DNA from: an uncultured Chloroflexia bacterium
GTDB lineage: Bacteria; Chloroflexota; Limnocylindria; Limnocylindrales; CSP1-4
DNA: 64,000 nt
Reading direction: 5' to 3'
Assembly (NCBI GenBank): GCA_963812745.1
Contig: CAWEWE010000004.1
Span: 188,760-252,759 of the forward strand
In this document: one piece after another, positions 6,320 through 61,189 of the stretch
Layout of the letters: each line of letters opens with the position of its first letter
Position numbering within the stretch: position 1 is the first letter of the stretch
Position numbers and translations under genes: made by a program
The notes under the pieces: generated by a model
What the model was told of the DNA's origin: nothing
The model's database searches: none
The model's input: only the letters and a program-made list of their open reading frames with translations

Positions 6320-7954
<1,635 letters not shown>

Positions 7955-24625: not shown

Positions 24626-24701
24626 GCGGGAGTAACTCAGTTGGCAGAGTGTCTGCTTCCCAAGCAGGATGTCGCGGGTTCGAGCCCCGTCTCCCGCTCC
24701 A
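24626..24701 (+). tRNA. tRNA-Gly: tRNA-Gly (anticodon CCC)
   Basis: Cloverleaf folded by eye. Acceptor GCGGGAG/CUCCCGC. D-arm ACUC-AGUUGGCA-GAGU. Anticodon stem UCUGC/GCAGG with loop UUCCCAA. T-arm GCGGG-UUCGAGC-CCCGU. A 3' UCCA is encoded. Confidence 0.85.
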
Positions 24702-27735: not shown

Positions 27736-27824
27736 TGCGGATTGGCGTGAGCCTGCGCACGACGAGGCCGCTCGGAAAGTGCCGGTCGGCTCTTTCGGAT
27801 GGGCTCTGACGGCCTGCGCCAGCT

Positions 27825-27841
27825 GGGACCAAGGCGTCCCC
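27825..27841. promoter_or_regulatory. GGGACC-AAGGC-GTCCCC inverted repeat in the divergent usp/flavodoxin promoter region
   Basis: Seen in sequence. GGGAC/GTCCC half-sites resemble NarL/DosR-family boxes, but the spacing differs from the mycobacterial DosR consensus. Confidence 0.25.
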
Positions 27842-27980
27842 CTCGACCGCTGCCCGGAAGGCCCATGTCTGGGGGCCGAATGGCCGTGGCGCCATGGCGT
27901 GAACCTCCCTACAACGGCAGAGACCCATGCTGGGCAACGGGATATACGCCCTGCTTCGGGCTGAGGGCTGAGGAGGCGTC

Positions 27981-28436
27981 ATGAGGATCCTGATCGTCTA
28001 CGCATCGCAATACGGGAACACCCAGAAGATCGCCCAGGCCATGAGCAAGGCGTTGGCAGCGGAGCACGACGTGCGCGTCTTGCATGCACCGGCCGCGCGC
28101 ACCATCACGGCCAAGGGCGTCGATCTGCTCTTCGTGGGCGCACCGACCCAGATGCGCGGCCTACGGCTCCTTGCGAAGCCCTTTCTCGCCGGCCTCGAGG
28201 GCCGCGGGTTCGGGGGCGTTCCCGCCGTGGCATTCGATACGCGGATGGCCGACTTCGTCCAGACCATCGCGTCGGATGTCATCGCGCGCCACCTCGTCGG
28301 GGCCGGCTGCCGTCTGGTCGCGCCGCCGGCGAGTTTCCTCGTCCTGGGCCTGGACGGCCCGCTTGCCGCCGGCGAGGAGGCGCGCGCTGCGAGTTGGGCT
28401 CGCTCCGTGGTGGGGGGTCTGTCGGTCCGCGCCTGA
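27981..28436 (+). CDS. Flavodoxin-domain protein
   Basis: MRILIVYASQYGNTQKIAQAM (FMN-binding T/S-x-T-G-x-T-like loop) ... LLFVGAPTQ. AGGAGG SD upstream. Confidence 0.65.
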   Translation: MRILIVYASQYGNTQKIAQAMSKALAAEHDVRVLHAPAARTITAKGVDLLFVGAPTQMRGLRLLAKPFLAGLEGRGFGGVPAVAFDTRMADFVQTIASDVIARHLVGAGCRLVAPPASFLVLGLDGPLAAGEEARAASWARSVVGGLSVRA

Positions 28437-31959: not shown

Positions 31960-32030
31960 CGATACCTCGTCGGTCGCCTCTGGGGTCACCAGGTCCAGCC
32001 TACCCCGACGGCTCGACCGACGGGTTCTGG

Positions 32031-32969
32031 TCAGGCCGTCGCCACGACGGCGGTCTCCTCTCGATGCGCGACCCCTGCCCGCGGCCGGGCGATCAGCACC
32101 GACGCCGCCGCAAGGTGCAGGACAGAGCGCGACACGCTGCCGACGAGCCACCGATGCAAGCTGCCCATATCCCTTGCCCCCAGGACGATGACATCGGCCC
32201 GCCACGTTTCGGCCTCATCGAGGATCCTCTCGACGACTTCCCCGTCCGCGACCACCGAGGCTCCCTCCACGTGACGCTGCCGTAGGCGCTCCGCGGTCAC
32301 CTCTGCCGCCGTCTGGGCTCGATGCTTGGCGATCTCGACCGCGTCGGCGTAGACCTCGATCGACGTCGTGCCGTCGACAGGCGAGATGCCCGTCCACCAG
32401 GGCATGCCTGGATCGGCAACGCTGACGACCCGGATCCGGGCCTCGTCGAAGAGACCGCTCCCGGCGATGAAGTCGGCCGCGGCGGCGGCGCCAGGCGAGC
32501 CGTCGGTCGCGAGCATGACCCGCTCGACGCGGGCGTGACGGGCGACGAGGACGGGGCATGAGGCGTGGTCGACAACCTCGGACGAGACTGAACCGAGCAG
32601 GAGCCGGCGCACGGTGCTCAGGCCGCGCGCACCCATCACGATGAGGTCAGCGCCGAAGTGGGCGGCCTCGGCGACGATCTCGGTCGCCGGTCTACCCTGG
32701 AGGACGCGAACCCCGGTGTGGGTCTCGCCTTTCCGCACGCGATCCGCGATGTCAAGAAGGCGGCGTGCGACGTCGTCACGTATGCGCTCTCGGTCGGTGG
32801 GCGGATCGACACGGATCACGTTGGGCCACGTGCTCCCCTCGGGCGCGAACGAATCCGGGATGACACTCACGACCTCGATCGTGGATTCGGCCGGCATGGA
32901 TAAGGCGGCCGTCGCCGCAACAGCGGACATCGACGCATCGGAGCCGTCGACCGCGAGCAGGATCTTCAT
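32031..32969 (-). CDS. Tandem-domain universal stress protein
   Basis: Two Usp repeats, each ending in the ...GARG(L/M)...LLGSVS..V...A..PVL(V/I)AR-like motif. Start [13 protein letters not shown] at 32969. Confidence 0.75.
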
Positions 32970-37865: not shown

Positions 37866-38597
37866 CTACGCGACCCGCAGTGTCCGCCCGACGTCGGCGA
37901 GCAGCGCGGCGCCATCGCCCCACGCCGCCGGGTGATCCGGTCGCAGATGCGCGGCTTCGGAAAGCACGGTTCGCGCGAACGGCCGCAGGTCTCGAGCAGC
38001 GATCGACATGCCCCGGTGCCGCGCCGCTGCGTCCTGGATGAACGCGGCATATCGCGCCAGCGGCGTTGCGCGGGCCAGCTGCTCCTCGAAGCCCGGCACG
38101 TAATCGACCGTCACGAGCAGTCGACCGAAGAATGCACCGACGGCGTCGGCTCCTTCGTCCCATCCCTGGGAGTGCCCACCCCGGCGGAGGATCGGCGCCG
38201 ACGATGTGAACGCCACGATCGCCGTGCCGTCGATGAGCTCCGCATCGCAACGTCCACCGAAGCCGAGATAGCCGTTCGACTCGCCGAGACGGTCGAGGAT
38301 GCGGATCTCGCCCCACGAGACACCTGTCGAGAACGGCATTCGACTGTCACGGGTGATCGTCTGATGCGTGCCGCGACCTCCACGGCTCGACCAGAACTCG
38401 ACCACCTCGGGGTCGTAATGGCGGAGGGTCGGGCGCTCACGCAGCGCGACGATCAGCGACGCCGGCCCGGGTCGGTCGGGTAGGTCGGGATCCGCCAGGA
38501 AGCCCCACGGCTCAAGGCGGCGGGCAGCGGACTGCAGACTCGGTCGCGGCTCGCTGCCCCCTGGTGGGTCCGCTCGCGAGGAATCCACTGCAGTCAC
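37866..38597 (-). CDS. Hypothetical protein
   Basis: A 243-aa ORF with GC-rich third positions and a 4-nt overlap with the downstream GlsB-like gene. No motif recognised. Confidence 0.45.
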   Translation of the reverse strand: MTAVDSSRADPPGGSEPRPSLQSAARRLEPWGFLADPDLPDRPGPASLIVALRERPTLRHYDPEVVEFWSSRGGRGTHQTITRDSRMPFSTGVSWGEIRILDRLGESNGYLGFGGRCDAELIDGTAIVAFTSSAPILRRGGHSQGWDEGADAVGAFFGRLLVTVDYVPGFEEQLARATPLARYAAFIQDAAARHRGMSIAARDLRPFARTVLSEAAHLRPDHPAAWGDGAALLADVGRTLRVA

Positions 38598-38914: not shown

Positions 38915-39131
38915 GTCGTCCGCGCTCCTTTCCCTGTGTGACGGACGTGTCCAAGCTCATGCTCGGAGGAAGGTCATCGAGCCGCCAGTGCCGTGTAGCG
39001 CTCCGCGAGAAGGCCGAAGTGCCTGATGTCCATCCCGGGCGACACGACGTGCCGGGCGGCTCCGGCGTTGGTGACAGATGGCCCGTGATGCCGCTTTCGC
39101 GGACCGGCACGATCGGCACAAGGAGCGTGCC

Positions 39132-39371
39132 ATGAGCGCAGGTGCCTTTCACGGACGCCGGGATCCCACGGAGCGCGCCTTGCGCGTGGAGGCGGGCGAG
39201 GTCGTCTGTCCGCGGCGCGGCCTCGTCGATATCGAGGATTGCTGGATCTGCCCGGACTACCGGGGATTGTCCGACGGGCGTGTCGAGTCGTTGATGTGTG
39301 GCCTGACCGAGGAAACGCTGGCCAGCGCGTACTGGGCGCTCGACCGCAGCCCTGGCTCGGATCGCGACTGA
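39132..39371 (+). CDS. Hypothetical small Cys-containing protein (79 aa)
   Basis: AAGGAG SD 6 nt upstream of ATG 39132. Sequence contains CPRRG...CWICPDY...MCGL. GC-rich third positions. Confidence 0.4.
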   Translation: MSAGAFHGRRDPTERALRVEAGEVVCPRRGLVDIEDCWICPDYRGLSDGRVESLMCGLTEETLASAYWALDRSPGSDRD

Positions 39372-39374
39372 GCC

Positions 39375-39845
39375 GTGATGGAGCGCCTGACCGAGCCACT
39401 CGTCGCCCTGATCGGTCGCCTGCTGCCCGGTCTGCCTGCGATCTCGATGCGGACCCTGGCCGCCATCGGCCGCGACGAGCGACCAGCGCCCGGAACCTTC
39501 CTCATGCGAGAAGGTCGCCCGACGCTCGACCTCGGTCTGATCGTCGAGGGCCGGCTGGCCGTGCGTGACCGGATCCGCCAGGACGACGTCACGCTCATGA
39601 CCCTCGAGGCCGGTGACGTCTTCGGCTGGTCGGCGGTACTCGACGGCGTCTCGACCGCGTCGATCGTCGCGCTCGACGGCGCGCGGGTCCTCTTGTTCAG
39701 GCGGGAGGCGATGCTTTCTGCGTTCGAGGGCGACAGTACGATCGCCATCGTCATCTACCGGCGCCTCCTCGAGGCGGTGGCGAGCCGACTCGATGCAACC
39801 CGCCTCCTCATGCGCGACGTGTATGCCGGGGGGCGCGCGTCATGA
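39375..39845 (+). CDS. Cyclic-nucleotide-binding (cNMP/CAP-effector) domain protein without a DNA-binding domain
   Basis: FLMREGRP..DLGLIVEGRLAV...LEAGDVFGWSAVL... resembles the cNMP-binding beta-roll. The stop overlaps the hydrogenase diaphorase start (ATGA). Confidence 0.55.
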   Translation: MMERLTEPLVALIGRLLPGLPAISMRTLAAIGRDERPAPGTFLMREGRPTLDLGLIVEGRLAVRDRIRQDDVTLMTLEAGDVFGWSAVLDGVSTASIVALDGARVLLFRREAMLSAFEGDSTIAIVIYRRLLEAVASRLDATRLLMRDVYAGGRAS

Positions 39846-41839
39846 CGGCAGCCCTACCGCCGACCGCTGCGACGACCGCATATCTGCCCCGGGGCGAGCT
39901 CGACCGTCTTCTCGCCGTGCTCAACGCCGACGGACGCACGGTCGTCGGTCCGACCATCCGCGATGGTGCCGTCGTGTACGCGGAGATCGCCGATGCCAGC
40001 CAACTTCCCGTCGGCTGGCGGGCTGACAGCGCGCCTGGCAGCTATCGGCTGGAGACCACCGCGCGCGATCGAGCCTTCGACTACGGCATCGCGGTGACCG
40101 CGTGGAAGCGGTTCACCCACCCGCCGCGCGTCCCACTCACGACGACGGGCCAGGACGGGCTCGTCGAGCCGGTCGAGCCGGATGTGCCGCGCGTGGCGTT
40201 CATCGGCGTGCGCGCCTGCGAACTGGCCGCGCTGGACATCCAGGAGCGTGTGTTTCGTGCCGGGCCCGCAGGTGACGCCGACCATGCCGCCCGGCGTGAG
40301 GCGAGCCTCGTGGTGGCCGTCGAGTGCGCGGTCGCGATGTCGACCTGTTTCTGCACGTCGATGGGCACGGGACCGGAGGTCAGCGACGACGCGGACATCG
40401 TCCTTGCCGAGCTCGACGACGGCTTCACGGTCCGGGCGCTGACGCCGGCGGGTGAGCGGATCGTCGCGATGCTTGGGCTTGGAGAGGCCTCGGTCGCACA
40501 GATCCGGTCCGCGGCCGCGCAGGTGGCCGGCGTCCGCGCCTGGATCGGCGACCCGGTACCCACCGAAGGGCTCGCGGAACGCCTGCGCGCCGCGCCCGAA
40601 CATCCCCGCTGGGCCGAGGTCGCGGAACGGTGCCTCGCGTGCACCAACTGCACGCTGGTCTGCCCGACCTGCTTCTGCACGAGCGTCAGCGTCAGCTCGG
40701 ATCTCGACGGCGTCAGCGGCGCGACCGAGCGGACATGGGATAGCTGCTTCACGCTCGGGTTCGGCCGGGTGGCTGGCGGTGCCAACTTCCGCCCGCGGGT
40801 CGCCGACCGCTATCGCCAGTGGCTGACCCACAAGTTCTCGACCTGGTGGGACCAGTTCGGGTCGACGGGCTGCGTGGGCTGCGGAAGGTGCATCACGTGG
40901 TGCCCGGTGGGCATCGACGTCCGCGAGGAGCTGCTCGCCATCGCGCCGCCAGGCGCCACCGCGGCGCCCGTGCCCTGGCCGCCCTCCCCCGCTGCCGGGC
41001 ACGCGCCGGCGCCGCTCGCGACCGTCGATCAGGCGCGCGATATGCCCGTCGAGGTCACCGCCGTCGGGCGTGAGACCGCCGATACCGTCACGCTCTCGCT
41101 CGCGACCGACGATCCTGGCCTGCTCGCGAGCCGCGCAGGACAGTTCGTCATGGTCGCGCGTGCCGCGCAGGCCGTGCCGCCCATCTCCATCTCACGCATC
41201 CGCTCGGATGGTCTGGACCTTACGATCCGCAAGGTGGGCCCGGCGACGGCGGCCCTCACCGCGAGCCAGCCCGGCGACCCTCTCTCGCTCCGCGGTCCGC
41301 TCGGCCGGCCGTGGCCGATCGAGTCGGCGTCCGGCGGCGACGTCGTGATCGTCGGCGGCGGCATCGGGTTGGCGCCCTTGCGACCGGTCATCGACGAGGT
41401 GATGCGCGAACGACATCGCTTCGGCGCCGTGCGCATCTACATGGGCGCGCGAACGCCGCACGACCGACTGTTCGTCGCTGAGATGGCGGCTCTCCGCGGT
41501 CGCACCGACCTGGAGCTCGAGGAGATCGTCGACCGCGGCGGACCGGAGTGGCTGGGCCGAGTCGGCGTCGTGACCCAGCTCTTCGAGCGGGCGACGTGGA
41601 CCGGCGAGCGGACCACGGCGTTCGTCTGTGGACCGGACCGGATGATGCAGGCCACGGCAAGGGCGCTCGCCGGCCGCGGCGTCGATCCGGGACGGACATG
41701 GGTGACGCTCGAGCGCAACATGGCTTGTGGGGTCGGGCTGTGCGGTCGCTGCCAGCTCGGACCGTACTTCGTCTGCCGCGACGGGCCCGTCTTCTCGGTC
41801 ACCGAGCTCGGCGACACCTTCACCGTGGAGGGTCGCTGA
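39842..41839 (+). CDS. Fused hydrogenase diaphorase subunit. The N-terminal Fe-S (HydB/AsrA-like) part is joined to a C-terminal FAD/NAD(P)-binding [2Fe-2S] (HydG/AsrB-like) part.
   Basis: Ferredoxin-type motifs CLACTNCTLVCPTCFC and CVGCGRCITWCP. An FNR-like fold (GGGIGLAPLRPV). C-terminal [2Fe-2S] motif CGVGLCGRC. Confidence 0.7.
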   Translation: MTAALPPTAATTAYLPRGELDRLLAVLNADGRTVVGPTIRDGAVVYAEIADASQLPVGWRADSAPGSYRLETTARDRAFDYGIAVTAWKRFTHPPRVPLTTTGQDGLVEPVEPDVPRVAFIGVRACELAALDIQERVFRAGPAGDADHAARREASLVVAVECAVAMSTCFCTSMGTGPEVSDDADIVLAELDDGFTVRALTPAGERIVAMLGLGEASVAQIRSAAAQVAGVRAWIGDPVPTEGLAERLRAAPEHPRWAEVAERCLACTNCTLVCPTCFCTSVSVSSDLDGVSGATERTWDSCFTLGFGRVAGGANFRPRVADRYRQWLTHKFSTWWDQFGSTGCVGCGRCITWCPVGIDVREELLAIAPPGATAAPVPWPPSPAAGHAPAPLATVDQARDMPVEVTAVGRETADTVTLSLATDDPGLLASRAGQFVMVARAAQAVPPISISRIRSDGLDLTIRKVGPATAALTASQPGDPLSLRGPLGRPWPIESASGGDVVIVGGGIGLAPLRPVIDEVMRERHRFGAVRIYMGARTPHDRLFVAEMAALRGRTDLELEEIVDRGGPEWLGRVGVVTQLFERATWTGERTTAFVCGPDRMMQATARALAGRGVDPGRTWVTLERNMACGVGLCGRCQLGPYFVCRDGPVFSVTELGDTFTVEGR

Positions 41840-42687
41840 TGCTGGCCTCGACAGCACCCCGTCAGGTCGCCCGGCACCGACCGCGTATCGGGGTGGTCAA
41901 GTTCGCGTCGTGCGACGGCTGCCAGCTGACGTTGCTCGACCTCGAGGATGACCTGCTGGCCATCGCCGACCGCGTCGACATCGTCGAGTTTGCCGAGGCT
42001 ACCTCGAACCGCTCATCCGGGCCGTTCGACATCCTGTTCGTCGAAGGCTCCATCAGCACGCTGGAGCAGGCGGAGGAGATCGTCCGGTTGCGGGGGGCGG
42101 CGACGACGCTCGTGACGATCGGGGCATGTGCCACGTCGGGCGGCATCCAGGCGCTGCGCAACTGGGCGGATCACGACGCGATCCGGTCGCTCGTGTACCC
42201 GCGACCGGACTACGTGGAGTCGCTCGCCACCGCCACGCCGATCGCCGATCACGTAGCGGTCGACGCGGAGCTGCGCGGCTGCCCCATCTCGCCCGACCAG
42301 CTGCGCGAGTTCGTCACCGCCACGCTCGTGCGACGCCGTCCGAACCTACCGGACGAGGCGCTCTGCGCTGAGTGCAAGCGGCGTGGCGTGGTGTGCGTGG
42401 CGGTCGCCGATGGCGTCACTTGCCTCGGCCCCATCACCAGGAGCGGCTGTGGCGCTCTGTGCCCAGCGTTCGGACGGGGGTGCTACGGCTGCTTCGGGCC
42501 ACGCGAGGGGGCCAACGGCCCGGGCCTCGCTGTCTGGCTTGGACGCACGAACGACGACGCCGACATCGCTCGCGCATTCGCCCTGTTCAACGCCTGGGCG
42601 CCGCCGTTCCGGAGCGTCATCGACGACGCGGGCGGCCCCCCAGGCCCCATCGACGGGTCGCCACCAAAGGAGCAACCCGATGCATGA
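41839..42687 (+). CDS. [NiFe]-hydrogenase small subunit (group 3 type)
   Basis: Proximal cluster motif FASCDGCQ and ...GACATSGG.... C-terminal Cys-rich cluster-binding region CAECKRRGVVCV...CLGPITRSGCGALCP. Confidence 0.75.
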   Translation: MLASTAPRQVARHRPRIGVVKFASCDGCQLTLLDLEDDLLAIADRVDIVEFAEATSNRSSGPFDILFVEGSISTLEQAEEIVRLRGAATTLVTIGACATSGGIQALRNWADHDAIRSLVYPRPDYVESLATATPIADHVAVDAELRGCPISPDQLREFVTATLVRRRPNLPDEALCAECKRRGVVCVAVADGVTCLGPITRSGCGALCPAFGRGCYGCFGPREGANGPGLAVWLGRTNDDADIARAFALFNAWAPPFRSVIDDAGGPPGPIDGSPPKEQPDA

Positions 42688-44002
42688 CGCCGTCGTGGCC
42701 CCGGGCGGCAGCGATCTCACCGTCGACGTGCGCAACCTGACCCGCGTCGAGGGCGAAGGGTCGCTGCACCTGCGGGTACGCGACGGCGCCGTCGAATCCG
42801 CACGCCTGGAGATCTTCGAGGCGCCGCGCTACTTCGAGCGACTCGTCGTCGGCCGGTCGATGGACGAGGTCATCGACATCGTGGCCCGCATCTGCGGCAT
42901 CTGCCCCGTCGCCTATCAGATGACCGCGGTCCACGCGGCCGAGGCCGCGTTCGGGATCACGGTCGATCCGGCGACGGTCGCGCTGCGTCGCCTGCTCTAC
43001 TGCGGCGAGTGGATCGAGAGCCACGCGCTCCACATCTACCTGCTTCACCTGCCGGATCTGCTCGGCTACCCGAGCGCGCTCGACCTCGCGCAGCACGATC
43101 GGGCGACGGTGGAAGGCGGGCTGCGGCTCAAGCGCGCCGGCAACACGATCGTGTCGCGCATCGGCGGTCGGGCGATCCACCCGGTGTCCGTTCGGGTCGG
43201 CGGGTTCTCGCGCGTCATCCGGCGCGACGAGATCGCGCCACTCCGCGCCGACCTGGAGGAGGCACAACGGCTGGCCGATGCGACGATCGACCTCGTCGCG
43301 GGCCTTCAACCGCCACCGTTCCGGCGGGAAGCGCGTCTCGTCGCGTTGCGTGCCGCTGACGAGTACCCGATGAACCATGGCCGCATCGTGTCGAACGACG
43401 GGCTCGACATCCCCGCGTCGGCGTGGGAGTCGATGTTCGAAGAGCGGCAGGTACCGTGGTCGCACGCTCTCCAGGCGCTGAGCCGCGACGGGCGCCCCTA
43501 CCTGCTCGGTCCGTCGTCGCGTGTGACGCTCGACAGCGACCGCCTGCATCCCCGGGCCGCAGACGCACTCGCTCGCCTGGATCTCGCCGACCGCATCGCT
43601 CACGAGCCAAACTGGAGCATCGCGGCGCGGGCTGTCGAGCTGGTCCACTCGGTGGCGGTGGCACTCGACATCGTCGATGCCTATGAGCCGCCGGCGGCGG
43701 GCGCGCTGCCGTGGCTGCCTAGCCCCGGGGTCGCCGCCTGGGCGACCGAGGCGCCACGAGGCCTGCTGTTCCAGCGGTTCCGACTCGACGGCGACGGTCG
43801 CGTCATGGAAGCCCGCATCGTCCCGCCGACCAGCCAGAACCAGGCGGCCATCGAGGCCGACCTGGCGCTCTTCGCGCCGACGATCCTGGATCGTCCGCAC
43901 GCCGAGGTGACGCACCTCCTCGAGGCGCTCATCCGCAGCTACGACCCGTGCATCAGTTGTGCGACGCACTTCCTGGATCTCGAGGTGGAGGACCTGCCAT
44001 GA
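42680..44002 (+). CDS. [NiFe]-hydrogenase large subunit
   Basis: N-terminal Ni-binding RICGICP and C-terminal DPCISCATH motifs. AAGGAG SD. An 8-nt overlap with the small subunit. Confidence 0.85.
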   Translation: MHDAVVAPGGSDLTVDVRNLTRVEGEGSLHLRVRDGAVESARLEIFEAPRYFERLVVGRSMDEVIDIVARICGICPVAYQMTAVHAAEAAFGITVDPATVALRRLLYCGEWIESHALHIYLLHLPDLLGYPSALDLAQHDRATVEGGLRLKRAGNTIVSRIGGRAIHPVSVRVGGFSRVIRRDEIAPLRADLEEAQRLADATIDLVAGLQPPPFRREARLVALRAADEYPMNHGRIVSNDGLDIPASAWESMFEERQVPWSHALQALSRDGRPYLLGPSSRVTLDSDRLHPRAADALARLDLADRIAHEPNWSIAARAVELVHSVAVALDIVDAYEPPAAGALPWLPSPGVAAWATEAPRGLLFQRFRLDGDGRVMEARIVPPTSQNQAAIEADLALFAPTILDRPHAEVTHLLEALIRSYDPCISCATHFLDLEVEDLP

Positions 44003-44568
44003 CTGCCGTACTCGACATCGCCCCGGCCGTTCGTCCACCGGACATCCATGACGGTCTGGACGTCGGCCCACCCGTCCCCACGATCCTCGTCGAGGTCCTC
44101 GCGTGCGGTGCACCCGATCGCGGCGATGACGCTGCCGGGGTGATCGCCGTCGGACGGCTCGCCGATGCGCTGCCCGACGACGTCCGCACGCGGATCGTCG
44201 GTCAGCTCGATATCGACGATCTCCTGGCCGTCCCGGCGGGCGCCGGGGCGATCGTCGTGGATACCGCCCTCGGCGTCGACCCAGGCTGGATCGTCGAGAT
44301 CCCATTCAGCGGACTCGCTGGCCGCGAGTCAGGCATCCGCCCGCGGTCATCACACGCACTCTCGATCCCCGAGACCATCGCCGTCGCTTCGATCATCCGC
44401 GGCCGACCGCTGCCCGGGATGGTCGTGGCCATCGGCGGCATCGACTTCGGGCTTGGGGAGGCGCTGAGCTGGCCGGTCACCGCGGCGATGGACGCCTTCG
44501 TCCTGGCGATCGACGACGCGATCAGACGCGTCCGGGCGCTTGTCGTGGGCACCACACCGGCGCGCTGA
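43999..44568 (+). CDS. Hydrogenase maturation endopeptidase (HycI/HoxW family)
   Basis: ILVEVLACGAPDRGDDAAG...AIVVDTALG matches the protease pattern (GN..xxDDG ... D[AT]). ATGA overlap with the large subunit stop. Confidence 0.65.
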   Translation: MTAVLDIAPAVRPPDIHDGLDVGPPVPTILVEVLACGAPDRGDDAAGVIAVGRLADALPDDVRTRIVGQLDIDDLLAVPAGAGAIVVDTALGVDPGWIVEIPFSGLAGRESGIRPRSSHALSIPETIAVASIIRGRPLPGMVVAIGGIDFGLGEALSWPVTAAMDAFVLAIDDAIRRVRALVVGTTPAR

Positions 44569-44583
44569 CCGGTCCCTGGTGGG

Positions 44584-44601
44584 CCGTGCCGAACGGCACG
44601 G
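44584..44601 (+). terminator. Weak hairpin (CCGTGCCG-AA-CGGCACGG) between the hydrogenase operon and the PFOR operon
   Basis: Seen in sequence. The loop is very tight, and the function is uncertain. Confidence 0.25.
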
Positions 44602-44656
44602 AGTAACGGGCCGGACGCCACATTCGTCCCGGTGACGGCCCCGGCACGCTTGGACC

Positions 44657-46648
44657 ATGAGCAACGGTTCGTTGCGGCCGACAGTCCGTTACCCCGGCAT
44701 CCCCTCGATCGTCGACGGATCCGAGGCGATCGCCCACGTCGAGACGCGCTTGTCCGAGGTGGCCTGCGCGTACCCGATCACGCCGTCGACCACGATGGCC
44801 GCCGTGTTCCAGTCGGCCGTGGCCAATGGCCTAACGAATCTCTGGGACACGCCCCTGCGGTTCGTGGAGCCCGAGTCCGAGCACAGCTCCGCGTCGGCTG
44901 CCGAGGGCGTCGCGCTGGCCGGCGGTCGCGTCACCAACTTCACGGCTGGCCAGGGGCTGGTGCTGATGAAGGAGGTCCTGTACGTCATCAGCGGCAAGCG
45001 GCTGCCCGTGGTGTTCCACGTCGGCGCTCGGGCGCTGACCAGCCAGGCGCTCAACATCCACGCCGGTCACGACGACGTGATGGCGGTGGCCGACACGGGC
45101 TGGGGGATCCTGTTCGCCCGGAACGCCCAGGAGGCCGCGGACCTGACCGCCATCGCTCGCCGCGTCGCCGAGGCGACCGAGACGCCGTTCTTCGTCGTCC
45201 AGGACGGGTTCCTCACGACCCACACGCTCGAGAACGTCCTGCTCCCCGAGGACGAGTTGCTGCGCGAGTTCGTCGGCGACCCGCGACAGCGGATCCGCTC
45301 GATGTTCGAGCCGGCCGAGGCGCTGATGACCGGTGTCGTCGAGAACCAGGACAGCTACATGAAGGGCCGCATCGGCCAACGCGCCTATTACGACCGGATC
45401 CGTCCGGCCCTGGACGAGGCGTTCGCACTCTGGGCTTCATTGACGGGCCGGACCTACCTCCATGTTCGTGACCATCGGTGCAGCGATGCGGACGAGATCG
45501 TCGTCTCGATGGGCACGATCGACGACACCGCGGTAGCCGTGGTCGATGCGCTTCGAGGCGAGGGTCGGTCGGTGGGCTGCGCCGCGGTCACGACCTTCCG
45601 GCCATTCCCCGCGGCGGATCTCCGGCGCATCCTCCGACGGGCGCGAACGGTCGGGGTCGTCGAGCGAACGGATGAGCCCGCGGCAGCCGACAACCCGCTG
45701 ACCCGCGAGACGAAGGCCGTGTTGTACGGCGCCGCCGCCGAAGGCGTTATGGTGCCGCGGGTCCTGTCGGTGTCGGCCGGCCTCGGGTCGCGCGACGTCG
45801 GCGCGGGCGATCTCGCCGCAGTGTTCGACTGGCTTTCCCAACACGGCGAACGCGCGCGCGACTACGCCGTGGTCGGCATCCGCCATCCGCTGGCGCTGCC
45901 AGCCCGTCCGATCGACGTGCGGCCCACAGGGGCGTACTCGCTGCGCGGACACTCGATCGGCGGCTTTGGCTCGGTGACGACGAACAAGCTCATCGCCACG
46001 ATCGTCGGCGAGGTCTTCGGCAAGCACGTCCAGGCGTATCCGCGCTACGGCTCGGAGAAGAAGGGCCTCCCGACGACGTACTACCTCACGATCGCGGACG
46101 AGCCGATCCACACGCACGCCGAGCTCGACCGGGTCGATATCGTCCCGCTTCACGACGTATCGGCCTTCGGCCTGGGCGATCCGCTCGCGGGTCTGGTCGA
46201 CGGCGGCACGCTCTTCCTCCAGTCGGTGCTGACCGACCCGGCGGCCATCTGGGCGTCGATCCCGGTCGTCGCGCGGGCCGACATCGTCCGCCGCCGGATC
46301 CGGGTGACCGCGCTCGACACCGCAGGCCTGGCTCGGGCCAGATCGCCTCGCCCGGATCTTGTTCTGCGGATGCAGGGCATCGCGTTGGTCGGCGTCTTCC
46401 TGCGGGTAGCGCCATTCGCCGCCGAAGCCGGCCTCGATCGGCGAGCACTGCTGGCGGCCGTCGGCGAGCGGCTCGGCCGTTTCTTCGGCAAGCGCGGTCG
46501 CGCCGTGGTGGACGCCAACCTCGAGCTGGTCACTGCCGCCTACGACAGCGTGATCGACGTCAGCCAGGCGCTGGGTCTGCCAGCGGGTGTCGAGCGTCAT
46601 GTCACCGTCCGCACCCAGCCACCGAGCCTGATCGGAGCCACGCCATGA
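44657..46648 (+). CDS. Pyruvate (2-oxoacid):ferredoxin oxidoreductase, fused alpha (PorA) and gamma (PorG) domains
   Basis: GSEAIAHVETRLSEVACAYPITPST (POR N-terminal), ...TAGQGLVLM..., and a gamma-domain C-terminal half. Length 663 aa. Confidence 0.8.
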   Translation: MSNGSLRPTVRYPGIPSIVDGSEAIAHVETRLSEVACAYPITPSTTMAAVFQSAVANGLTNLWDTPLRFVEPESEHSSASAAEGVALAGGRVTNFTAGQGLVLMKEVLYVISGKRLPVVFHVGARALTSQALNIHAGHDDVMAVADTGWGILFARNAQEAADLTAIARRVAEATETPFFVVQDGFLTTHTLENVLLPEDELLREFVGDPRQRIRSMFEPAEALMTGVVENQDSYMKGRIGQRAYYDRIRPALDEAFALWASLTGRTYLHVRDHRCSDADEIVVSMGTIDDTAVAVVDALRGEGRSVGCAAVTTFRPFPAADLRRILRRARTVGVVERTDEPAAADNPLTRETKAVLYGAAAEGVMVPRVLSVSAGLGSRDVGAGDLAAVFDWLSQHGERARDYAVVGIRHPLALPARPIDVRPTGAYSLRGHSIGGFGSVTTNKLIATIVGEVFGKHVQAYPRYGSEKKGLPTTYYLTIADEPIHTHAELDRVDIVPLHDVSAFGLGDPLAGLVDGGTLFLQSVLTDPAAIWASIPVVARADIVRRRIRVTALDTAGLARARSPRPDLVLRMQGIALVGVFLRVAPFAAEAGLDRRALLAAVGERLGRFFGKRGRAVVDANLELVTAAYDSVIDVSQALGLPAGVERHVTVRTQPPSLIGATP

Positions 46649-47073
46649 ACGCGAGTCCACAGACCGGTCGCCCGGTGACCGTTGGCGACCTGATGGCGAA
46701 CGATCCGATCGTGGTCCGCCCCGACGCCTCCCTGACCGCTGCGGCCCGACTCATGGACGAGTACGACATCAGCGGGCTCCCGGTGGTCGCCCCGGCCGGC
46801 CGGGTGATCGGGGTGATCAGCGAGACGGACCTGGTCCGCGCGCGCGCCACGGAATGGCTGTGGGCGAACTGGACGGGGCTCAAGGTCAGTCACCTCATGT
46901 CCAGCCCGCCACTCACCATCGGACGGTCCGCCTCCCTCCAGACCGCGGCGATCAAGATGGAGGACAACCACGTGCATCGGCTCGTCGTGGTCGCCGATGA
47001 TGATCCGCAGCTCCCGATCGGCGTCATCTCGACCAGTGACGTCGTACGCGCCCTCACGGGGGGCGACAGATGA
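46645..47073 (+). CDS. CBS-domain pair protein
   Basis: Two CBS motifs (VTVGDLMANDPIVVRPDASL...; VSHLMSSPPLTIGRSASL...HRLVVV). Both the start and the stop overlap the PFOR genes by 4 nt. Confidence 0.7.
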   Translation: MNASPQTGRPVTVGDLMANDPIVVRPDASLTAAARLMDEYDISGLPVVAPAGRVIGVISETDLVRARATEWLWANWTGLKVSHLMSSPPLTIGRSASLQTAAIKMEDNHVHRLVVVADDDPQLPIGVISTSDVVRALTGGDR

Positions 47074-48758
47074 CCGCCGACCTGCGATCCCCACTGACGA
47101 AGGAGGCCGGAGCCCTCAAGGAGCAGCACGAGGCCGAGCTCGCGATCGCGACCCCGCTGTTCGATATCCAGTCGTACGTCGAGGAGTTCGGCGCATCGAT
47201 CGTTCCGGCCTACCGCCGTGGTGTGGCGGACGAGGAGTGGCCCGCGGACGTCGGCCTCGCGCGGAGCGTCATCCCACCCGGCACGGCCGCGGTCCGTGAC
47301 TTCAGTCGGCTCGCGCCCCGCCTGCCGCAGTTCGTTGCCGAGCGATGCGTCGGCTGCATGGCGTGCGTCAGCGCCTGCCCCGACAGCGCGATCCTGGGGA
47401 TCGCCGTTCCCGAGGGAGACCTCGCGGAGCGCGTCGCCACGTTCGCCGCCGAGGAGCGCACGCCAGACGTTGCCGGTGAGTCGGCACAGGCACATTTCGT
47501 CCATACAGCCAAGTACGCGGAGGTCCCCGCGAAGCGCGGCCTCGAACCGGCGAGCTTCGGGATCTTCATCGAGCCGATCCACTGCAAGGGCTGCGCCGAG
47601 TGCGTCGAGGTATGTGCGGCGCTGGGCCATGACGCCCTGTTCATGGCAGACAAGTCGGACGAGGATGCGACCGGCGAGACCGTGCTCGACCGTGCGATGC
47701 GCGACATGCGCTTCTTCCGATCGCTGCCGCCGACACCTCCGGCATACCGCAACGAGAAGGCCCTCGCCGACCTGATGCTGGGCGAGCATGCGATCGGGTA
47801 TGTCGGCGGCGCCGGCTCGTGCGCGGGCTGCGCGGAAGCGTCGGCGATCCGGATGATGGTCGCGGCGACGCGGCAGGTCCACGGCCCGGAGTCGATGGGC
47901 ATCGTCGCCGCGACGGGCTGCAACAGCGTCTTCGGGAGCACGTATCCGTTCAATCCATACCTCGTCCCATGGACGAACTCGTTGTTCGAGAACGCGCCGG
48001 CGGTGGCGGCCGGGATCCGCGCCCGCTGGGACCAGGCGGGCCACCCGGAGCGCAAGTTGTGGGTGATGGGCGGCGACGGGGCGATGTACGACATCGGCTT
48101 CCAGGCGTTGTCCCGGATGGTTGCCTCGGGCGCCGACATCAACGTCCTCGTGCTGGACACGCAGGTCTACTCCAACACCGGCGGGCAGGCGTCGACAGCG
48201 TCCTTCGGCGGTCAGGTCACCAAGCTGACCGCGTTCGGTTCGGCAGAGCATGGGCGTCCCGAGGCGCGCAAGGAGCTGGGCCGGATCCTGATGGCGCACG
48301 GCAACGCCTATGTCGCCCAGACGACGCCCGCCCACCTGAACCACTTCTACCGCTCGGTGATGGAGGCGAACGCCTTTCCGGGCCCCGCGGTCGTCATCGT
48401 CCATACGGCGTGCATGCCGGAGCACGGCATCGCCGACGACGCGGCGTCGCGGCAGGCCAAGCTGGCCGTCGACTCGCGGGCGTTCCCGCTCTTCACGTAC
48501 GACCCGCGGCGCGGCACGACATTCGCCGAGCGGCTGTCGCTCCAGGGCAACCCCGCCTTGCGCGAGGACTGGTCGGCGCTACCGGGCGGGCAACGCATCG
48601 ACTTCCTGACCTTCGCCCGATCCGAGGGCCGGTTCGGTCCGCACTTCGGGACGGACGGCGCGCCGAGCGTGGAGATCCAGGCGACGCAGGCGGACCGCCT
48701 GGCCAACTGGCGGACGCTCCAGGAGTGGGCCGGCTTTCGCCCGACGGAGGCTGGCTGA
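47070..48758 (+). CDS. Pyruvate:ferredoxin oxidoreductase, fused delta (2x[4Fe-4S]) and beta (TPP-binding) domains
   Basis: CVGCMACVSACP and CKGCAECVEVC ferredoxin motifs. TPP motif GDGAMYDIGFQAL...VLDTQVYSNTGGQ. Confidence 0.85.
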   Translation: MTADLRSPLTKEAGALKEQHEAELAIATPLFDIQSYVEEFGASIVPAYRRGVADEEWPADVGLARSVIPPGTAAVRDFSRLAPRLPQFVAERCVGCMACVSACPDSAILGIAVPEGDLAERVATFAAEERTPDVAGESAQAHFVHTAKYAEVPAKRGLEPASFGIFIEPIHCKGCAECVEVCAALGHDALFMADKSDEDATGETVLDRAMRDMRFFRSLPPTPPAYRNEKALADLMLGEHAIGYVGGAGSCAGCAEASAIRMMVAATRQVHGPESMGIVAATGCNSVFGSTYPFNPYLVPWTNSLFENAPAVAAGIRARWDQAGHPERKLWVMGGDGAMYDIGFQALSRMVASGADINVLVLDTQVYSNTGGQASTASFGGQVTKLTAFGSAEHGRPEARKELGRILMAHGNAYVAQTTPAHLNHFYRSVMEANAFPGPAVVIVHTACMPEHGIADDAASRQAKLAVDSRAFPLFTYDPRRGTTFAERLSLQGNPALREDWSALPGGQRIDFLTFARSEGRFGPHFGTDGAPSVEIQATQADRLANWRTLQEWAGFRPTEAG

Positions 48759-48988
48759 TGTGCCTGACGTTCCCGGGTGAGGTGGTCGCGCTGGACGGCC
48801 TGGAGGCCGTCGTCCTGACGGACGGCCGGCTCCGTCGGGCAACCACCCTGGGCCTACCAGACGCCGCGGTCGGCGACCGGGTCGTCGTGGCCGCCGGATC
48901 GATCATCGCCCGACTCGACACCCAGCAAGCGGATGACATCGAGCGACTCGTCCGGGTCGCGCGAGGAGACGAAGGAGCAACGACATGA
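48758..48988 (+). CDS. hypC: Hydrogenase maturation factor HypC/HupF
   Basis: Begins MCLTFPGEVV, matching the HypC signature MC(L/I)(A/G)(I/V)P. 76 aa. The start overlaps the PFOR stop. Confidence 0.7.
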   Translation: MCLTFPGEVVALDGLEAVVLTDGRLRRATTLGLPDAAVGDRVVVAAGSIIARLDTQQADDIERLVRVARGDEGATT

Positions 48989-49929
48989 TCGCGGTCAACG
49001 GCTCGCGCCCGTGGCGGGCGCTGACCATCCCACGGACCCGGGCCATCGGCCTGTGCCTCGCCGCCGCTACGGCGACGATCAGCGGGGTGTCCGTCTTCAT
49101 CAACGCCGCGGCCGTCAAGCACGTCCCGGACGCCGCCGTGTTCACGACGTTGAAGAACGCGGTGGCGGTCGCCCTGCTCCTTGCGGTCGCCGTGGCCGTC
49201 GTCCGCCCGGCGGAGGTCCGGGCCGTAAATGCGCGGGATCGGGCCCGGCTCGTGATCATCGGCACGCTCGGCGGCGGTGTCGCGTTCCTGCTCTTCTTCT
49301 CCGGTCTGGCGATGGCCAGTGCGCCGTCGGCCGCATTCATCCACAAGACGATGTTCCTCTGGGTCGCACTCATGGCCGGCCCCTTCCTGGGCGAGCGCCT
49401 GGGCTGGGCACCGATCGCGGCGCTCGGCGTGCTCCTCCTCGGCCAGGTCCTGATCCTCCCGCCGCTCGGTATCTCATGGGGCACCGGCGAGACGCTCATC
49501 GCCATCGCGACCGGCCTGTGGGCCATCGAGGTCGTCCTCGCGCGGCGCGTTTTGGGCCGCGTGCGATCGCCCATCGTGGGCGTCGCGCGACTGGGCATCG
49601 GCCTCGTCGTCCTGGTCGGTTTCCTGATTGTGACCGGACGGATCGCCGGCATCGCCGCTCTCGATGGCACGGCCTGGCTGTGGATCGCGATCACCGGGCT
49701 GTTCCTCTCGGGCTACGTCGGGACCTGGCTTGCGGCCATTCGTCGGGCACCGGCCACGGAAGTGACGTCGATCCTCGTCGTCGGCGCAGTGATCACCGGC
49801 GCGCTGACAGCCATCTCGCGCGGTGCCGTCCCGGACCCGTTGACGGCCGGCGGGTACCTGCTGGTGGCGATCGCCGTCGTCGGGCTGGCGGGTCTCGGCT
49901 CGCGACGCCCGGCACCAGTCATCGCCTAG
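48985..49929 (+). CDS. EamA/DMT family transporter
   Basis: Ten predicted TM helices in two 5-helix repeats. 314 aa. Confidence 0.65.
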   Translation: MIAVNGSRPWRALTIPRTRAIGLCLAAATATISGVSVFINAAAVKHVPDAAVFTTLKNAVAVALLLAVAVAVVRPAEVRAVNARDRARLVIIGTLGGGVAFLLFFSGLAMASAPSAAFIHKTMFLWVALMAGPFLGERLGWAPIAALGVLLLGQVLILPPLGISWGTGETLIAIATGLWAIEVVLARRVLGRVRSPIVGVARLGIGLVVLVGFLIVTGRIAGIAALDGTAWLWIAITGLFLSGYVGTWLAAIRRAPATEVTSILVVGAVITGALTAISRGAVPDPLTAGGYLLVAIAVVGLAGLGSRRPAPVIA

Positions 49930-49936
49930 GCCGCAG

Positions 49937-50725
49937 ATGGCCACATCGAGCCTGGTCCCACCGCCCGAGCGCCAGAGGATCGCGCGCCCTCCCGCGTCGG
50001 GCCCGGTCCTGTTCGCACGATACGCCTACGGGCCGAACCGCTACGGCTACTGCGGTCCGGATGACGCCGACGAGCTCCTCGAGGCCGGGGCGGCAAACCA
50101 GGATCCGATCCTTCGCAACCTCGCGAGCAAGTTCGAGGGCGCGTATCCCTACCTCGCCCTGATCGCCCGGTCCAATGGCATACCCGACCCGCTCGACCGA
50201 CGCGTGGTCGAGGCGTACTGGCTGGGCAACGACCTGTTGGCAGCCGTGCCGATCGGAGCCCTGGGTGCGTCCCTCGATGAACGATTCCGGGCGCGCCTGC
50301 GATCGGACGACTGGCGCTGGTTGGCCAGCAAGCCGGTGAGCGGAGCGCGTCCGGTCCACGCGTTCCACGTGCTGGACGTGTTCCCGCGCGTCGGACTGAT
50401 CCGCGGAGGACGGGTCGATGGGATCCTCGAGATCATGGATTCGTGTCGCATCCGGTGGGGGCGCGTGCTGGAGCGGATCGGCGACCAGCTCATCGTCTCG
50501 GCCACGCGGCTCGAGCTCGTCGAAGGGCAGCTTCGGCATGGCAAGCCCGCGCCCGAACGCGTCCAGGCGTGGCGCGATGCGACTGGCTTCATCGACGTTC
50601 CTGAGCCGGGTGACGCAGTGTCCATCCATTGGTCGTGGGCGTGCGATCGACTGGACGCACGACAGCTCATGAACCTCGTCGCCTGGACCGACCGTCAGCT
50701 TCTGATCGCGAACCAGACCATCTGA
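49937..50725 (+). CDS. Conserved hypothetical protein
   Basis: A 262-aa ORF with genome-typical codon usage. Contains YAYGPNRYGYCGPDD. No assignable domain. Confidence 0.45.
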   Translation: MATSSLVPPPERQRIARPPASGPVLFARYAYGPNRYGYCGPDDADELLEAGAANQDPILRNLASKFEGAYPYLALIARSNGIPDPLDRRVVEAYWLGNDLLAAVPIGALGASLDERFRARLRSDDWRWLASKPVSGARPVHAFHVLDVFPRVGLIRGGRVDGILEIMDSCRIRWGRVLERIGDQLIVSATRLELVEGQLRHGKPAPERVQAWRDATGFIDVPEPGDAVSIHWSWACDRLDARQLMNLVAWTDRQLLIANQTI

Positions 50726-59322: not shown

Positions 59323-59395
59323 CTTCCCGGGGACGTGCGCGGCGAAGAAGGGACCTCCGGCCCGTCGCGCCGGGCCGATCGGCCCGGTCCGGGCG

Positions 59396-59878: not shown

Positions 59879-61189
59879 TCAGGTCGCGCTCCGAACGGCC
59901 CCCGCCAGCGCCGCGCTCGGTCGGTCGCTCCGCACCGCCGCGCGGAGCTCGTCACGGAAGTCGGGGTGGGCGATGGCGATCAGGGCCTTCGCGCGCTCGT
60001 CGAGGCTCTTGCCGAACAGCTCAGCGACTCCGTACTCGGTCACGACCGTACGGACGTGCGCCCGGGTCGTGACGACGCCGGCGCCCGGCTGCAGCGTCGC
60101 GGCGATCCGTGACACGGTCCCGCCCGCGGCGGTCGACGGCAGCGCGATGATCGCTCGTCCCTCCGGCGCGAGTGCCGCGCCACGGATGAAGTCCATCTGC
60201 CCGCCGACGCCCGAATACATCCGTCGGCCGACGGAATCGGCCACGACCTGGCCGGTGAGGTCGACCTCGATGGCGGAGTTGATGGCGACCATCCGCCGAA
60301 AGCCCCGGATCACAGCCGAGTCGTTGGTGAAGTCGACGGGTCGCATCTCGACCATCGGGTTGTCGTGCATGAAGTCGTACAGCCGCTTCGTGCCCAGCAC
60401 GAACGCGGTAACGATCTTGCCCCGGTTGCGCTCCTTGGCGTTCCCGGTGATGGCGCCCGCCTCGACCAGGTCGACGACCGAGTCGGTGAACATCTCGGTA
60501 TGGATGCCGAGGTCGCGCTTGTCACGCAGGAACAGAGCCGTCGCGGCCGGGATCGCCCCGATGCCGAGCTGGATCGTCGCCTCGTCGGGAATGAGATCGG
60601 CGACGTACGCGCCGATGCGGCGCTCGACCTCGCCGATCGGCCCGATCGGGTGCTCGTACGGCGACACATCGACATCGACCGCAAGGTCGATCTCATCGAC
60701 GTGGATGAAGCTGTCGCCAAGCGTCCGCGGCATGGCGCGGTTGAACTGGACGATGACGGTCTGCCCGGCGCGCATCGCCGCGTGGATCGCTTCAACGGAC
60801 GTGCCCAGCGAGCAGAAACCGTGGCGATCCGGGGGCGTGGCGTTGATCAGAACGGCATCAAGAGGAAGGGCACCGGACGTGAACAGATGTGGGACGTCCG
60901 ACAGGAACACCGGGACGTAGTCGGCGCGGTCTTCCTCGACGGCCCTTCGCGCGTTGGGGCCGATGAACAGCGCCCGGTGCCGGAAGTGGCGGGCCATTTC
61001 AGGCGCGAGGTGAGGCCCCGGCCCCTCGATGTGGAGATGAACGACGCTGATGTCCGTGAGGTCTTCGGCCGTGGCGCGGTCGACCAGGGCGTCGAGCAGG
61101 ACCGATGGGGCGGCCGCGGCGCAATGGACGTACACCTGCTGCCCACTATCGATGGCCGAGACAGCTTCAGCCGATGTGACGATCCGCAT
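59879..61189 (-). CDS. Acetyl-CoA hydrolase/transferase family protein (4-hydroxybutyrate / succinyl-CoA:acetate CoA-transferase-like)
   Basis: Characteristic ...GIGAIPAATALFL...HTEMFTDSVVDLVEAGAITG...YSGVGGQMDF. Confidence 0.75.
   Translation of the reverse strand: MRIVTSAEAVSAIDSGQQVYVHCAAAAPSVLLDALVDRATAEDLTDISVVHLHIEGPGPHLAPEMARHFRHRALFIGPNARRAVEEDRADYVPVFLSDVPHLFTSGALPLDAVLINATPPDRHGFCSLGTSVEAIHAAMRAGQTVIVQFNRAMPRTLGDSFIHVDEIDLAVDVDVSPYEHPIGPIGEVERRIGAYVADLIPDEATIQLGIGAIPAATALFLRDKRDLGIHTEMFTDSVVDLVEAGAITGNAKERNRGKIVTAFVLGTKRLYDFMHDNPMVEMRPVDFTNDSAVIRGFRRMVAINSAIEVDLTGQVVADSVGRRMYSGVGGQMDFIRGAALAPEGRAIIALPSTAAGGTVSRIAATLQPGAGVVTTRAHVRTVVTEYGVAELFGKSLDERAKALIAIAHPDFRDELRAAVRSDRPSAALAGAVRSAT

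Follow-up and report, generated by a model that had tools for sequence, protein, structure and literature searches.

A CBS-pair gene between the two genes of a split, probable pyruvate:ferredoxin oxidoreductase in uncultured Chloroflexota

Why should a gene for a small CBS-domain protein lie between two genes which together resemble a pyruvate:ferredoxin oxidoreductase (PFOR), and does its product belong to that enzyme? The question is raised by a 64,000-nt stretch of DNA from an uncultured Chloroflexia bacterium (assembly GCA_963812745.1, contig CAWEWE010000004.1, positions 188,760 to 252,759 of the forward strand; this whole stretch is called the window here), in which the initial annotation had taken the CBS protein to be very likely co-translated with the PFOR and possibly a regulatory subunit of it. 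The 2-oxoacid:ferredoxin oxidoreductases (OFORs) are central enzymes of anaerobic carbon metabolism, and to our knowledge no OFOR with an allosteric nucleotide sensor has been described. The four open reading frames (ORFs) concerned, which are those of the trio and of a hypC gene that follows it, are all present in the sequence where the initial annotation had placed them, and the trio is predicted to consist of:

44657-46648, + strand: PFOR alpha-gamma, 663 amino acids, domains I (Pyr)-II-III; Pfam POR_N, PFOR_II and POR
46645-47073, + strand: stand-alone CBS pair, 142 amino acids; Pfam CBS twice (3e-30)
47070-48758, + strand: PFOR delta-beta, 562 amino acids, with a domain IV-like N-terminus, a 2x[4Fe-4S] ferredoxin domain and a domain VI binding thiamine pyrophosphate (TPP)

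The two 4-nt overlaps reported on either side of the CBS gene both read as ATGA in the sequence (46645-46648 at the alpha-gamma/CBS junction and 47070-47073 at the CBS/delta-beta junction), and the G+C content at third codon positions (GC3) of the three ORFs is 0.87-0.90, as expected for real genes in a 70% G+C genome (70% being the G+C content of the window).

That the two large genes encode PFOR components was upheld by profile matches as well as by alignments with PFORs of solved structure. The alpha-gamma protein matches Pfam POR_N (1.3e-58, 198.9 bits), PFOR_II (2.1e-16, 60.6 bits) and POR (8.9e-26, 91.5 bits), all of which exceed the cut-offs, and the delta-beta protein matches Fer4 families and TPP_enzyme_C (1.7e-13, 51.1 bits). 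Residues 19-631 of alpha-gamma align to the PFORs of D. africanus and M. thermoacetica, its best solved relatives, with E values of about 1e-76, the matches to archaeal PorA (5e-48) and to oxalate oxidoreductase being much weaker; delta-beta aligns to residues 660-1106 of the D. africanus enzyme, with an E value of about 5e-45 in its best single-chain PFOR match among solved structures. The split between the two genes falls between domains III and IV of single-chain PFOR, and the CBS gene is placed exactly there. In phmmer alignments the equivalents of D. africanus PFOR Ile30, Thr31, Glu64, Arg114, Ile123 and Asn996 are all identical; we take Ile30, Thr31, Arg114, Ile123 and Asn996 to be pyruvate-site residues of that enzyme and Glu64 to be its TPP-activating residue. 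In delta-beta, the TPP motif GDG...N (GGDGAMYDIG...VYSNTGGQ) and the cysteines of the proximal [4Fe-4S] cluster, or cluster-A (CAGC, ATGCN and HTACMP), align to D. africanus PFOR, and ferredoxin domain V has both cluster motifs, CxxCxxCxxxCP and CxxCxxCxxxC (CVGCMACVSACP and CKGCAECVEVCA). The NCBIfam models score lower, TIGR02176 (pyruvate:ferredoxin oxidoreductase) giving 331 and 204 bits where the cut-off is 911, and PorA_Arch (260 against 550) and PorB (156 against 405) both falling under their equivalog cut-offs. As judged from these matches, the two large genes encode a divergent, split member of the PFOR branch, not an equivalog, and pyruvate is the probable substrate.

A scan with one genome per GTDB species found 449 genomes that encode a relative of alpha-gamma, and the best 80 of the 449 (alpha-gamma 69-90% identical) were inspected as loci with 10-kb flanks, together with two metagenome contigs, the window proteins being placed on all of these comparison loci by tblastn. 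Every one of them is a metagenome-assembled genome or a metagenome contig, and taxon labels are those of the depositors. The closest relatives of the window are metagenome-assembled Chloroflexota labelled Candidatus Limnocylindrales/Limnocylindria, and the trio is found across Limnocylindria, in other Chloroflexota (many from soil or freshwater) and in a few neighbouring lineages. With at least 700 nt downstream of alpha-gamma, 75 loci were evaluable for the position of the CBS gene, and the CBS ORF proved to be conserved in these orthologous operons, lying between alpha-gamma and delta-beta in 70 of them; its orthologues are 45-77% identical to the window copy, which indicates purifying selection on the gene. 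In 67 of 74 loci a possible CBS start lies in an exact 4-nt overlap with the end of alpha-gamma, and in 65 of 70 the CBS gene and delta-beta share 1-14 nt at their junction. The start codon nearest each stop was chosen, which favours overlaps, but an exact 4-nt overlap in 67 loci is still far beyond chance, and gene calls made by others on the metagenome contigs give the same overlaps. The position of the CBS gene between the PFOR genes is thus not a matter of chance. Because overlapping stop and start codons are kept family-wide, the prediction that the three genes are translated together is well founded, and the initial annotation was in this respect borne out.

The CBS gene is missing from five loci (L006, L007, L019, L032 and L050), in which alpha-gamma is joined to delta-beta by the same ATGA. 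The alpha-gamma proteins of L006 and L007 (82% identical to that of the window) are closer to it than those in most CBS-containing loci, so that the absences look like repeated clean losses. L052 has, at 7686-7910 between alpha-gamma and delta-beta, a CBS remnant of 82 amino acids in which the middle of the pair is deleted, and this truncated gene appears to be an intermediate toward loss.

The CBS protein itself is, by sequence and model, a canonical Bateman module. It has two Pfam CBS stretches (104.8 bits against a cut-off of 24), and an AlphaFold2 model built from 82 sequences has the Bateman fold (predicted local distance difference test, pLDDT, 88.1; predicted TM-score, pTM, 0.79), for which Foldseek gave probability 1.00 to many CBS pairs, with TM-scores of up to 0.79 (query) and 0.90 (target). 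The nearest solved folds are stand-alone or CBS-plus-small-domain proteins; the solved neighbours include CBSX2 (AMP), MJ0100 (S-adenosylmethionine, SAM, or methylthioadenosine, MTA), AcuB (AMP/ADP/ATP), SSO3205, PAE2072 and M. tuberculosis Hrp1, and several were solved with AMP, ADP, ATP, diadenosine tetraphosphate (Ap4A) or SAM. Both CBS halves of the window protein carry the ribose-binding motif G-h-h-S-x-T/S-D (as GVISETD and GVISTSD), and the 82-sequence alignment shows no variation at G56, D62, G126 and D132 and at least 90% conservation at S59, at S129 and in a strand HRLVVV of the second CBS half, which occurs as in AMPK gamma CBS motifs; AMPK gamma-1 matches residues 23-141 of the CBS protein. 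Because both ribose motifs and the HRLVVV strand are present, and because several structural neighbours are ligand-bound, an adenylate or other adenosyl ligand is plausible. The conserved motifs of the family are GLPVV, GV(I/L)SxTD, LWANWxGL and HRLVVV, and the linker motif ATE(W/Y)LWANWxGL is peculiar to it. Thiol-based redox sensing by the protein was ruled out, as its translation contains no cysteine. L001-L005, L015, L059, L069 and L077 have additional CBS-pair paralogues, 31-48% identical to the window CBS protein, at a distance of a few kb from the trio, and in L001 and L002 one such paralogue overlaps the end of a conserved 133-amino-acid ORF with no Pfam hit on record.

By the ORF list, GC3 and profiles, the trio stands in one unbroken run of + strand genes from a cyclic nucleotide monophosphate (cNMP)-binding protein (39375) through a malic enzyme (52539). 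Around the trio this run comprises:

39375-39845, + strand: stand-alone cyclic-nucleotide-binding-domain protein, 156 amino acids, heading the hydrogenase operon; Pfam cNMP_binding (5.1e-11)
39842-41839, + strand: fused HyhB-HyhG, 665 amino acids, with AsrA-like Fe-S and FAD/NAD(P)-binding parts; Pfam Fer4_22, NAD_binding_1 and DHODB_Fe-S_bind
41839-42687, + strand: [NiFe]-hydrogenase small subunit; Pfam Oxidored_q6
42680-44002, + strand: [NiFe]-hydrogenase large subunit; Pfam NiFeSe_Hases, with RICGIC and DPCISCATH motifs in the translation
43999-44568, + strand: hydrogenase maturation endopeptidase; TIGR00072, 53.4 bits against a cut-off of 47.45
44569-44656: gap of 88 nt before alpha-gamma
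48758-48988, + strand: hypC (HypC/HupF), 76 amino acids, with an MCLTFPG N-terminus; Pfam HupF_HypC (7.9e-14)
48985-49929, + strand: EamA-family transporter; Pfam EamA (1.8e-20)
49937-50725, + strand: DUF6390 protein; Pfam DUF6390 (5.6e-79)
ending at 52539, + strand: malic enzyme

The large-subunit stop overlaps the endopeptidase start via ATGA, and hypC overlaps the PFOR stop, as had been reported, by 1 nt (TGATG, at 48758). HypC scores 52 bits in Pfam against a cut-off of 28.5, and 30.9 with TIGR00074 against a cut-off of 48. The protein annotation covers about 50 ORFs of the window; hypC is shorter than the cut-off of 80 amino acids applied to ORFs in the GC3 comparison. The initial annotation had stated that the window holds no other hyp genes, and none of hypA, B, D, E or F is indeed found among these annotated ORFs, but the adjoining hydrogenase and endopeptidase had been overlooked. 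All four modules of a group 3b enzyme are present (large, small, AsrA-like Fe-S and FAD/NAD(P)-binding, with B and G fused), and the best NCBIfam matches are the sulfhydrogenase subunits HydB/G/D/A and ShyB/C/D/A, all of them under the cut-offs (for the large subunit, ShyA 253 bits against 700 and HydA 238 against 880); the upstream enzyme is accordingly named here as a predicted group 3b-type [NiFe] hydrogenase. Most relatives share the HyhB-HyhG fusion; the top hit is only partial in L018 and L036, which suggests that HyhBG is split or rearranged there. The cNMP-binding gene is found upstream of HyhBG in 21 related loci, overlaps the HyhBG start and encodes no DNA-binding domain, and its product would be, after the CBS protein, the second sensor domain for a small ligand that the cluster couples to a redox enzyme. 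A small Cys-containing ORF of about 79 amino acids (39133-39372) starts the hydrogenase operon, and an equivalent small gene has been called in L001 and L002.

The link between the PFOR and this hydrogenase is the synteny itself, the trio being placed within the hydrogenase operon or next to it. With at least 6 kb upstream of alpha-gamma, 48 loci were evaluable for it and HyhL is present in 24. The window gene order recurs in L001-L003, L005, L018 and L036, and L004 agrees over the part that is covered. Elsewhere the order is different: in L054 and L057 HypC-EamA-DUF6390 follows the protease directly, ahead of the PFOR (the order in L059 is the same, with the HypC match under the coverage filter), and in L017 the opposite strand carries the hydrogenase cluster, downstream of the trio. 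HypC, EamA and DUF6390 change place as one block (L017, L018, L019, L036, L043, L054, L057 and L063). The order in L054 and L057 implies that hypC belongs to the hydrogenase module, and hypC, EamA and DUF6390 are on this comparison assigned to that module and not to the PFOR, the trio appearing to be a separate module that often docks beside the hydrogenase. By itself, hypC therefore does not link the PFOR to hydrogenase maturation as had been proposed, since it travels with the hydrogenase in relatives. HypC, EamA and DUF6390 always occur together and in company with a group 3b hydrogenase, for which DUF6390 may be an accessory factor so far overlooked.

The trio also seems to have an upstream operator of its own, as the 88-nt gap contains two palindromic boxes, 22 nt apart:

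44586-44599: palindromic box GTGCCGAACGGCAC
44608-44621: palindromic box GGGCCGGACGCCAC

An alignment of close relatives shows both boxes to be conserved, with a compensating change in the half-sites, and 66 of 78 loci have a site of the type GGGCC-N4-GGCCC in the 160 nt that precede alpha-gamma (background, 0.11 per 160 nt), often in pairs 22-23 nt apart. The window has 14 matches to the motif where 3.2 are expected, and with a relaxed motif 29 of 63 window matches are intergenic, intergenic DNA making up 22% of the window by the gene list. Palindromes are positioned at 44586-44621, 39019-39119, 27779-27886, 52703, 59350-59385, 61815 and 62366, and they stand upstream of the PFOR, the hydrogenase operon (four intergenic copies of the relaxed motif), the divergent Usp and flavodoxin genes (two such copies between them), ORF 52732, a multicopper oxidase and the acetyl-CoA hydrolase/transferase. 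The DosR box consensus TTSGGGACTWWAGTCCCSAA has a 5-N4-5 layout (PMC2275270), and the boxes are probably an operator, as yet putative, for a regulator of the NarL/DosR type. An RNA element in the 88-nt leader was rejected, since tandem copies 22-23 nt apart favour a DNA palindrome and the leader gave no Rfam match at the gathering threshold or at E values up to 5; a tRNA gene (24626-24698) is the sole Rfam match in the window at the gathering threshold. Sigma-70 promoter-like sites were looked for and none found, and a search for intrinsic terminators returned four weak terminator-like sites, all inside genes and not above expectation.

Clustering of all neighbour proteins of the related loci gave, as the commonest neighbour of the trio, an acetyl-CoA hydrolase/transferase (27 loci, often 1.4-2.2 kb upstream of alpha-gamma; cluster 4, with the window copy at 59879-61189 on the - strand), followed by a GAF-HisKA_3 kinase and a Response_reg-GerE protein (21 loci each), Usp (14 loci) and CoA-transferase A/B subunits (10-12 loci). 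The window encodes a phosphoketolase, Usp, flavodoxin, malic enzyme, acetyl-CoA hydrolase/transferase and GAF kinase as well, and the gene set around the trio fits a hypoxia/redox-stress set. The flavodoxin is a candidate electron acceptor of the PFOR; its gene and that of Usp diverge around two palindromes, with the phosphoketolase gene adjoining (27274-28436 and 29581-32205). In 13 loci the trio has in its vicinity a conserved 243-amino-acid protein with no Pfam match (window 37866-38597, - strand; cluster 13). The Hyh of M. smegmatis, a group 3b hydrogenase, is under DosR control and carries out hypoxic fermentation to H2 (bioRxiv 10.1101/2023.09.11.557286).

The explanation that we favour, with moderate confidence, is that of a hypoxia-regulon PFOR with a stoichiometrically co-made and probably nucleotide-sensing CBS partner; as to the narrower claim of a regulatory partnership between CBS protein and PFOR, we consider the case to be evenly balanced. 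The split enzyme would oxidise pyruvate to acetyl-CoA and CO2, reducing its own ferredoxin domain, and the CBS protein, made in step with the two subunits, would most likely bind an adenine nucleotide or another adenosyl ligand. Bateman modules regulate IMPDH, AMPK and CBS-pyrophosphatase, and by analogy the ligand-bound CBS protein might tune the activity or stability of the PFOR to the energy state of the cell. The trio would act under its own tandem GGGCC-N4-GGCCC operator within the hypoxia/redox-stress gene set, the acetyl-CoA being passed to CoA-transferases, and PFOR and hydrogenase would probably serve to discharge electrons from pyruvate as H2, by fermentation, once oxygen is exhausted.

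Gene order and coupling are strong evidence that CBS protein and PFOR are co-produced, and are only suggestive of complex formation. The CBS protein was also searched against 1.84 billion representatives for fusions, and the 150 best were examined. Only 13 matches reach 1e-30, several of these being long multi-CBS proteins of about 30% identity. Two apparent CBS-PFOR fusions (P0249 and P0343) were rejected as frameshifted assemblies, and P0238 (872 amino acids) was rejected as a CBS fusion, being a protease-alpha-gamma read-through: on its 305,779-bp contig the maturation protease is read into alpha-gamma without a stop, either as a real fusion or through a lost stop codon, which underlines how tightly the protease and PFOR modules are packed. 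The contigs of seven CBS homologues were looked up, and in six the CBS gene has PFOR genes on its flanks, or overlapping ORFs where the contig is very short.

Several observations weigh against the explanation that we favour. No genuine fusion of a CBS protein to either PFOR subunit was found among the 150 best representatives, and alpha-gamma C-termini and delta-beta N-termini are alike in CBS-containing and CBS-less loci, with no docking signature. The five CBS-less loci with ATGA-joined PFOR genes imply that the CBS protein is, to judge from gene content, dispensable in some lineages. The seventh homologue, P0119, is 64% identical and has the family motifs, but its gene directly follows HyhL and the hydrogenase protease, and no split-PFOR gene lies on its 3.8-kb contig (lineage L083-L086, for which 24 short contigs were read); a different OFOR gamma-subunit gene is convergent to it. 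From this context, the CBS protein could have its role with the hydrogenase or across the regulon as a whole. In half of the sufficiently flanked loci there is no hydrogenase within 10 kb, and group 3b hydrogenases are regarded as NAD(P)H-linked, reduced ferredoxin having no established route to them. The assignment of the substrate turns on about six residues, with every NCBIfam score under its equivalog cut-off, and the box resembles that of DosR by layout alone, the half-site being GGGCC as against GGGAC.

The main rival starts from some of these same observations and sees in the CBS protein a stress protein of the hypoxia regulon that stands on its own, like M. tuberculosis Hrp1/Rv2626c; it would be transcribed along with the PFOR, but its target would be a different one, for instance the hydrogenase or some general pathway of redox or energy metabolism, or it would have no enzyme partner. 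Hrp1 is a stand-alone pair of about equal size and ranks 34th among the structural neighbours, CBS-pair paralogues stand a few kb away in several loci, in the L083 lineage the CBS gene follows the hydrogenase protease without a split PFOR, and the five losses of the CBS gene came with no visible change in the PFOR. Such a protein would, however, hardly account for a position which is fixed in 70 of 75 loci while the hydrogenase and other neighbours come and go, nor for the exact ATGA coupling in 67 of 74 loci, which would be unusual for mere promoter sharing, and six of the seven homologues that were looked up have PFOR genes or overlapping ORFs at their sides; we regard this rival as rather unlikely. 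The placing of the CBS gene exactly at the domain III/IV split could instead mean that its product is a structural or assembly factor which bridges or chaperones the PFOR halves, or, these bacteria being largely aerobic, shields their clusters from oxygen, with no sensing at all, and the coupled order of alpha-gamma, CBS and delta-beta would deliver the CBS protein between the nascent halves. This we think improbable, as CBS-less loci are split identically and joined by ATGA, so that the split enzyme manages without the protein, which moreover has no cysteine and has conserved both ligand-site motifs, needless for a pure scaffold.

Two further explanations concern the direction and destination of the electrons. 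PFORs are reversible, according to established enzymology, a hydrogenase adjoins and a malic enzyme lies downstream, and the enzyme might therefore be a reductive pyruvate synthase which uses hydrogenase-derived electrons to fix CO2 onto acetyl-CoA, with the CBS protein gating a costly reaction. Electrons at the NAD(P)H level from a group 3b enzyme would, however, be too weak without bifurcation, and no bifurcating module is present; the commonest neighbours (acetyl-CoA hydrolase/transferase and CoA-transferases) consume acetyl-CoA and the regulon resembles a hypoxia-survival set, and we consider this the least probable of the explanations discussed here. In the opposite direction, split PFOR, CBS protein and group 3b hydrogenase might together form one adenylate-gated "pyruvate hydrogen-lyase", with CBS-switched electron flow from the ferredoxin domain to HyhB. 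A CBS dimer would then sense the energy charge and the PFOR ferredoxin domain would feed the Fe-S chain of HyhB directly, so that aerobic Chloroflexota would release electrons from pyruvate as H2 only on a fall in ATP during hypoxia; so complete a system is in our view a long shot. If it were true, it would be the first allosterically regulated OFOR and would reveal an electron donor at the ferredoxin level for hydrogenases of a class regarded as NAD(P)H-linked.

With the PFOR and its co-made CBS partner as the favoured explanation, a CBS protein chained to both PFOR subunits in many uncultured Chloroflexota would be a new control of pyruvate oxidation, and the trio may be the first PFOR with a built-in energy sensor. 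In mycobacteria, where it has been studied best, the electron source of the group 3b hydrogenase is still only presumed, and the linkage of the trio to a group 3b hydrogenase and a DosR-like system offers a testable route by which "aerobic" bacteria could ferment to H2 in oxygen shortage. The system is small, with three genes in about 4.1 kb, and is suited to heterologous expression. In the open-access literature we found neither a CBS gene described in an OFOR operon nor a PFOR described within or next to a group 3b hydrogenase operon, and no PFOR with a CBS partner was found among solved structures or described in that literature.

Of the known systems, the mycobacterial Hyh under DosS/T-DosR has the same hydrogenase subunit set as the window; the neighbours in related loci include a GAF-kinase, a NarL-type regulator and Usp, and the palindrome upstream is laid out 5-N4-5, as is the DosR box. 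Unlike in mycobacteria, HyhB and HyhG are fused in the window, the operon is led by a cNMP-binding protein and the half-site differs from that of DosR; no PFOR or CBS gene is mentioned with the M. smegmatis Hyh (bioRxiv 10.1101/2023.09.11.557286). With AMPK gamma, IMPDH, CBS-pyrophosphatase, CBSX1/2, AcuB and Hrp1 the window CBS protein has in common the fold and the ribose-binding and His-Arg motifs, and in size and stand-alone format it matches CBSX and Hrp1; it is, however, only 20-33% identical to any solved CBS protein, has its own LWANWxGL linker, and lies between OFOR subunit genes, a location not described for any of them. The heterotetrameric PorABCD (9BT4) and oxalate oxidoreductase (5C4I) are multi-subunit OFORs with the same catalytic domains, the parts matched by the PorA and PorB profiles being N-terminal in alpha-gamma and C-terminal in delta-beta, but those enzymes have four (or three) small subunits and no CBS gene where the window has two fused pairs, and the match to them is weaker than that to single-chain PFOR. 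It is the homodimeric single-chain PFOR (NifJ/Por; D. africanus 1B0P/7PLM and M. thermoacetica 6CIN) that the window enzyme most resembles, with the same domain order I-II-III-IV-V-VI; some 70 residues of domain VI (D. africanus ~880-950) are without counterpart in the delta-beta alignment, and the window divides the chain over two genes, the break falling between domains III and IV, where the CBS-pair gene stands.

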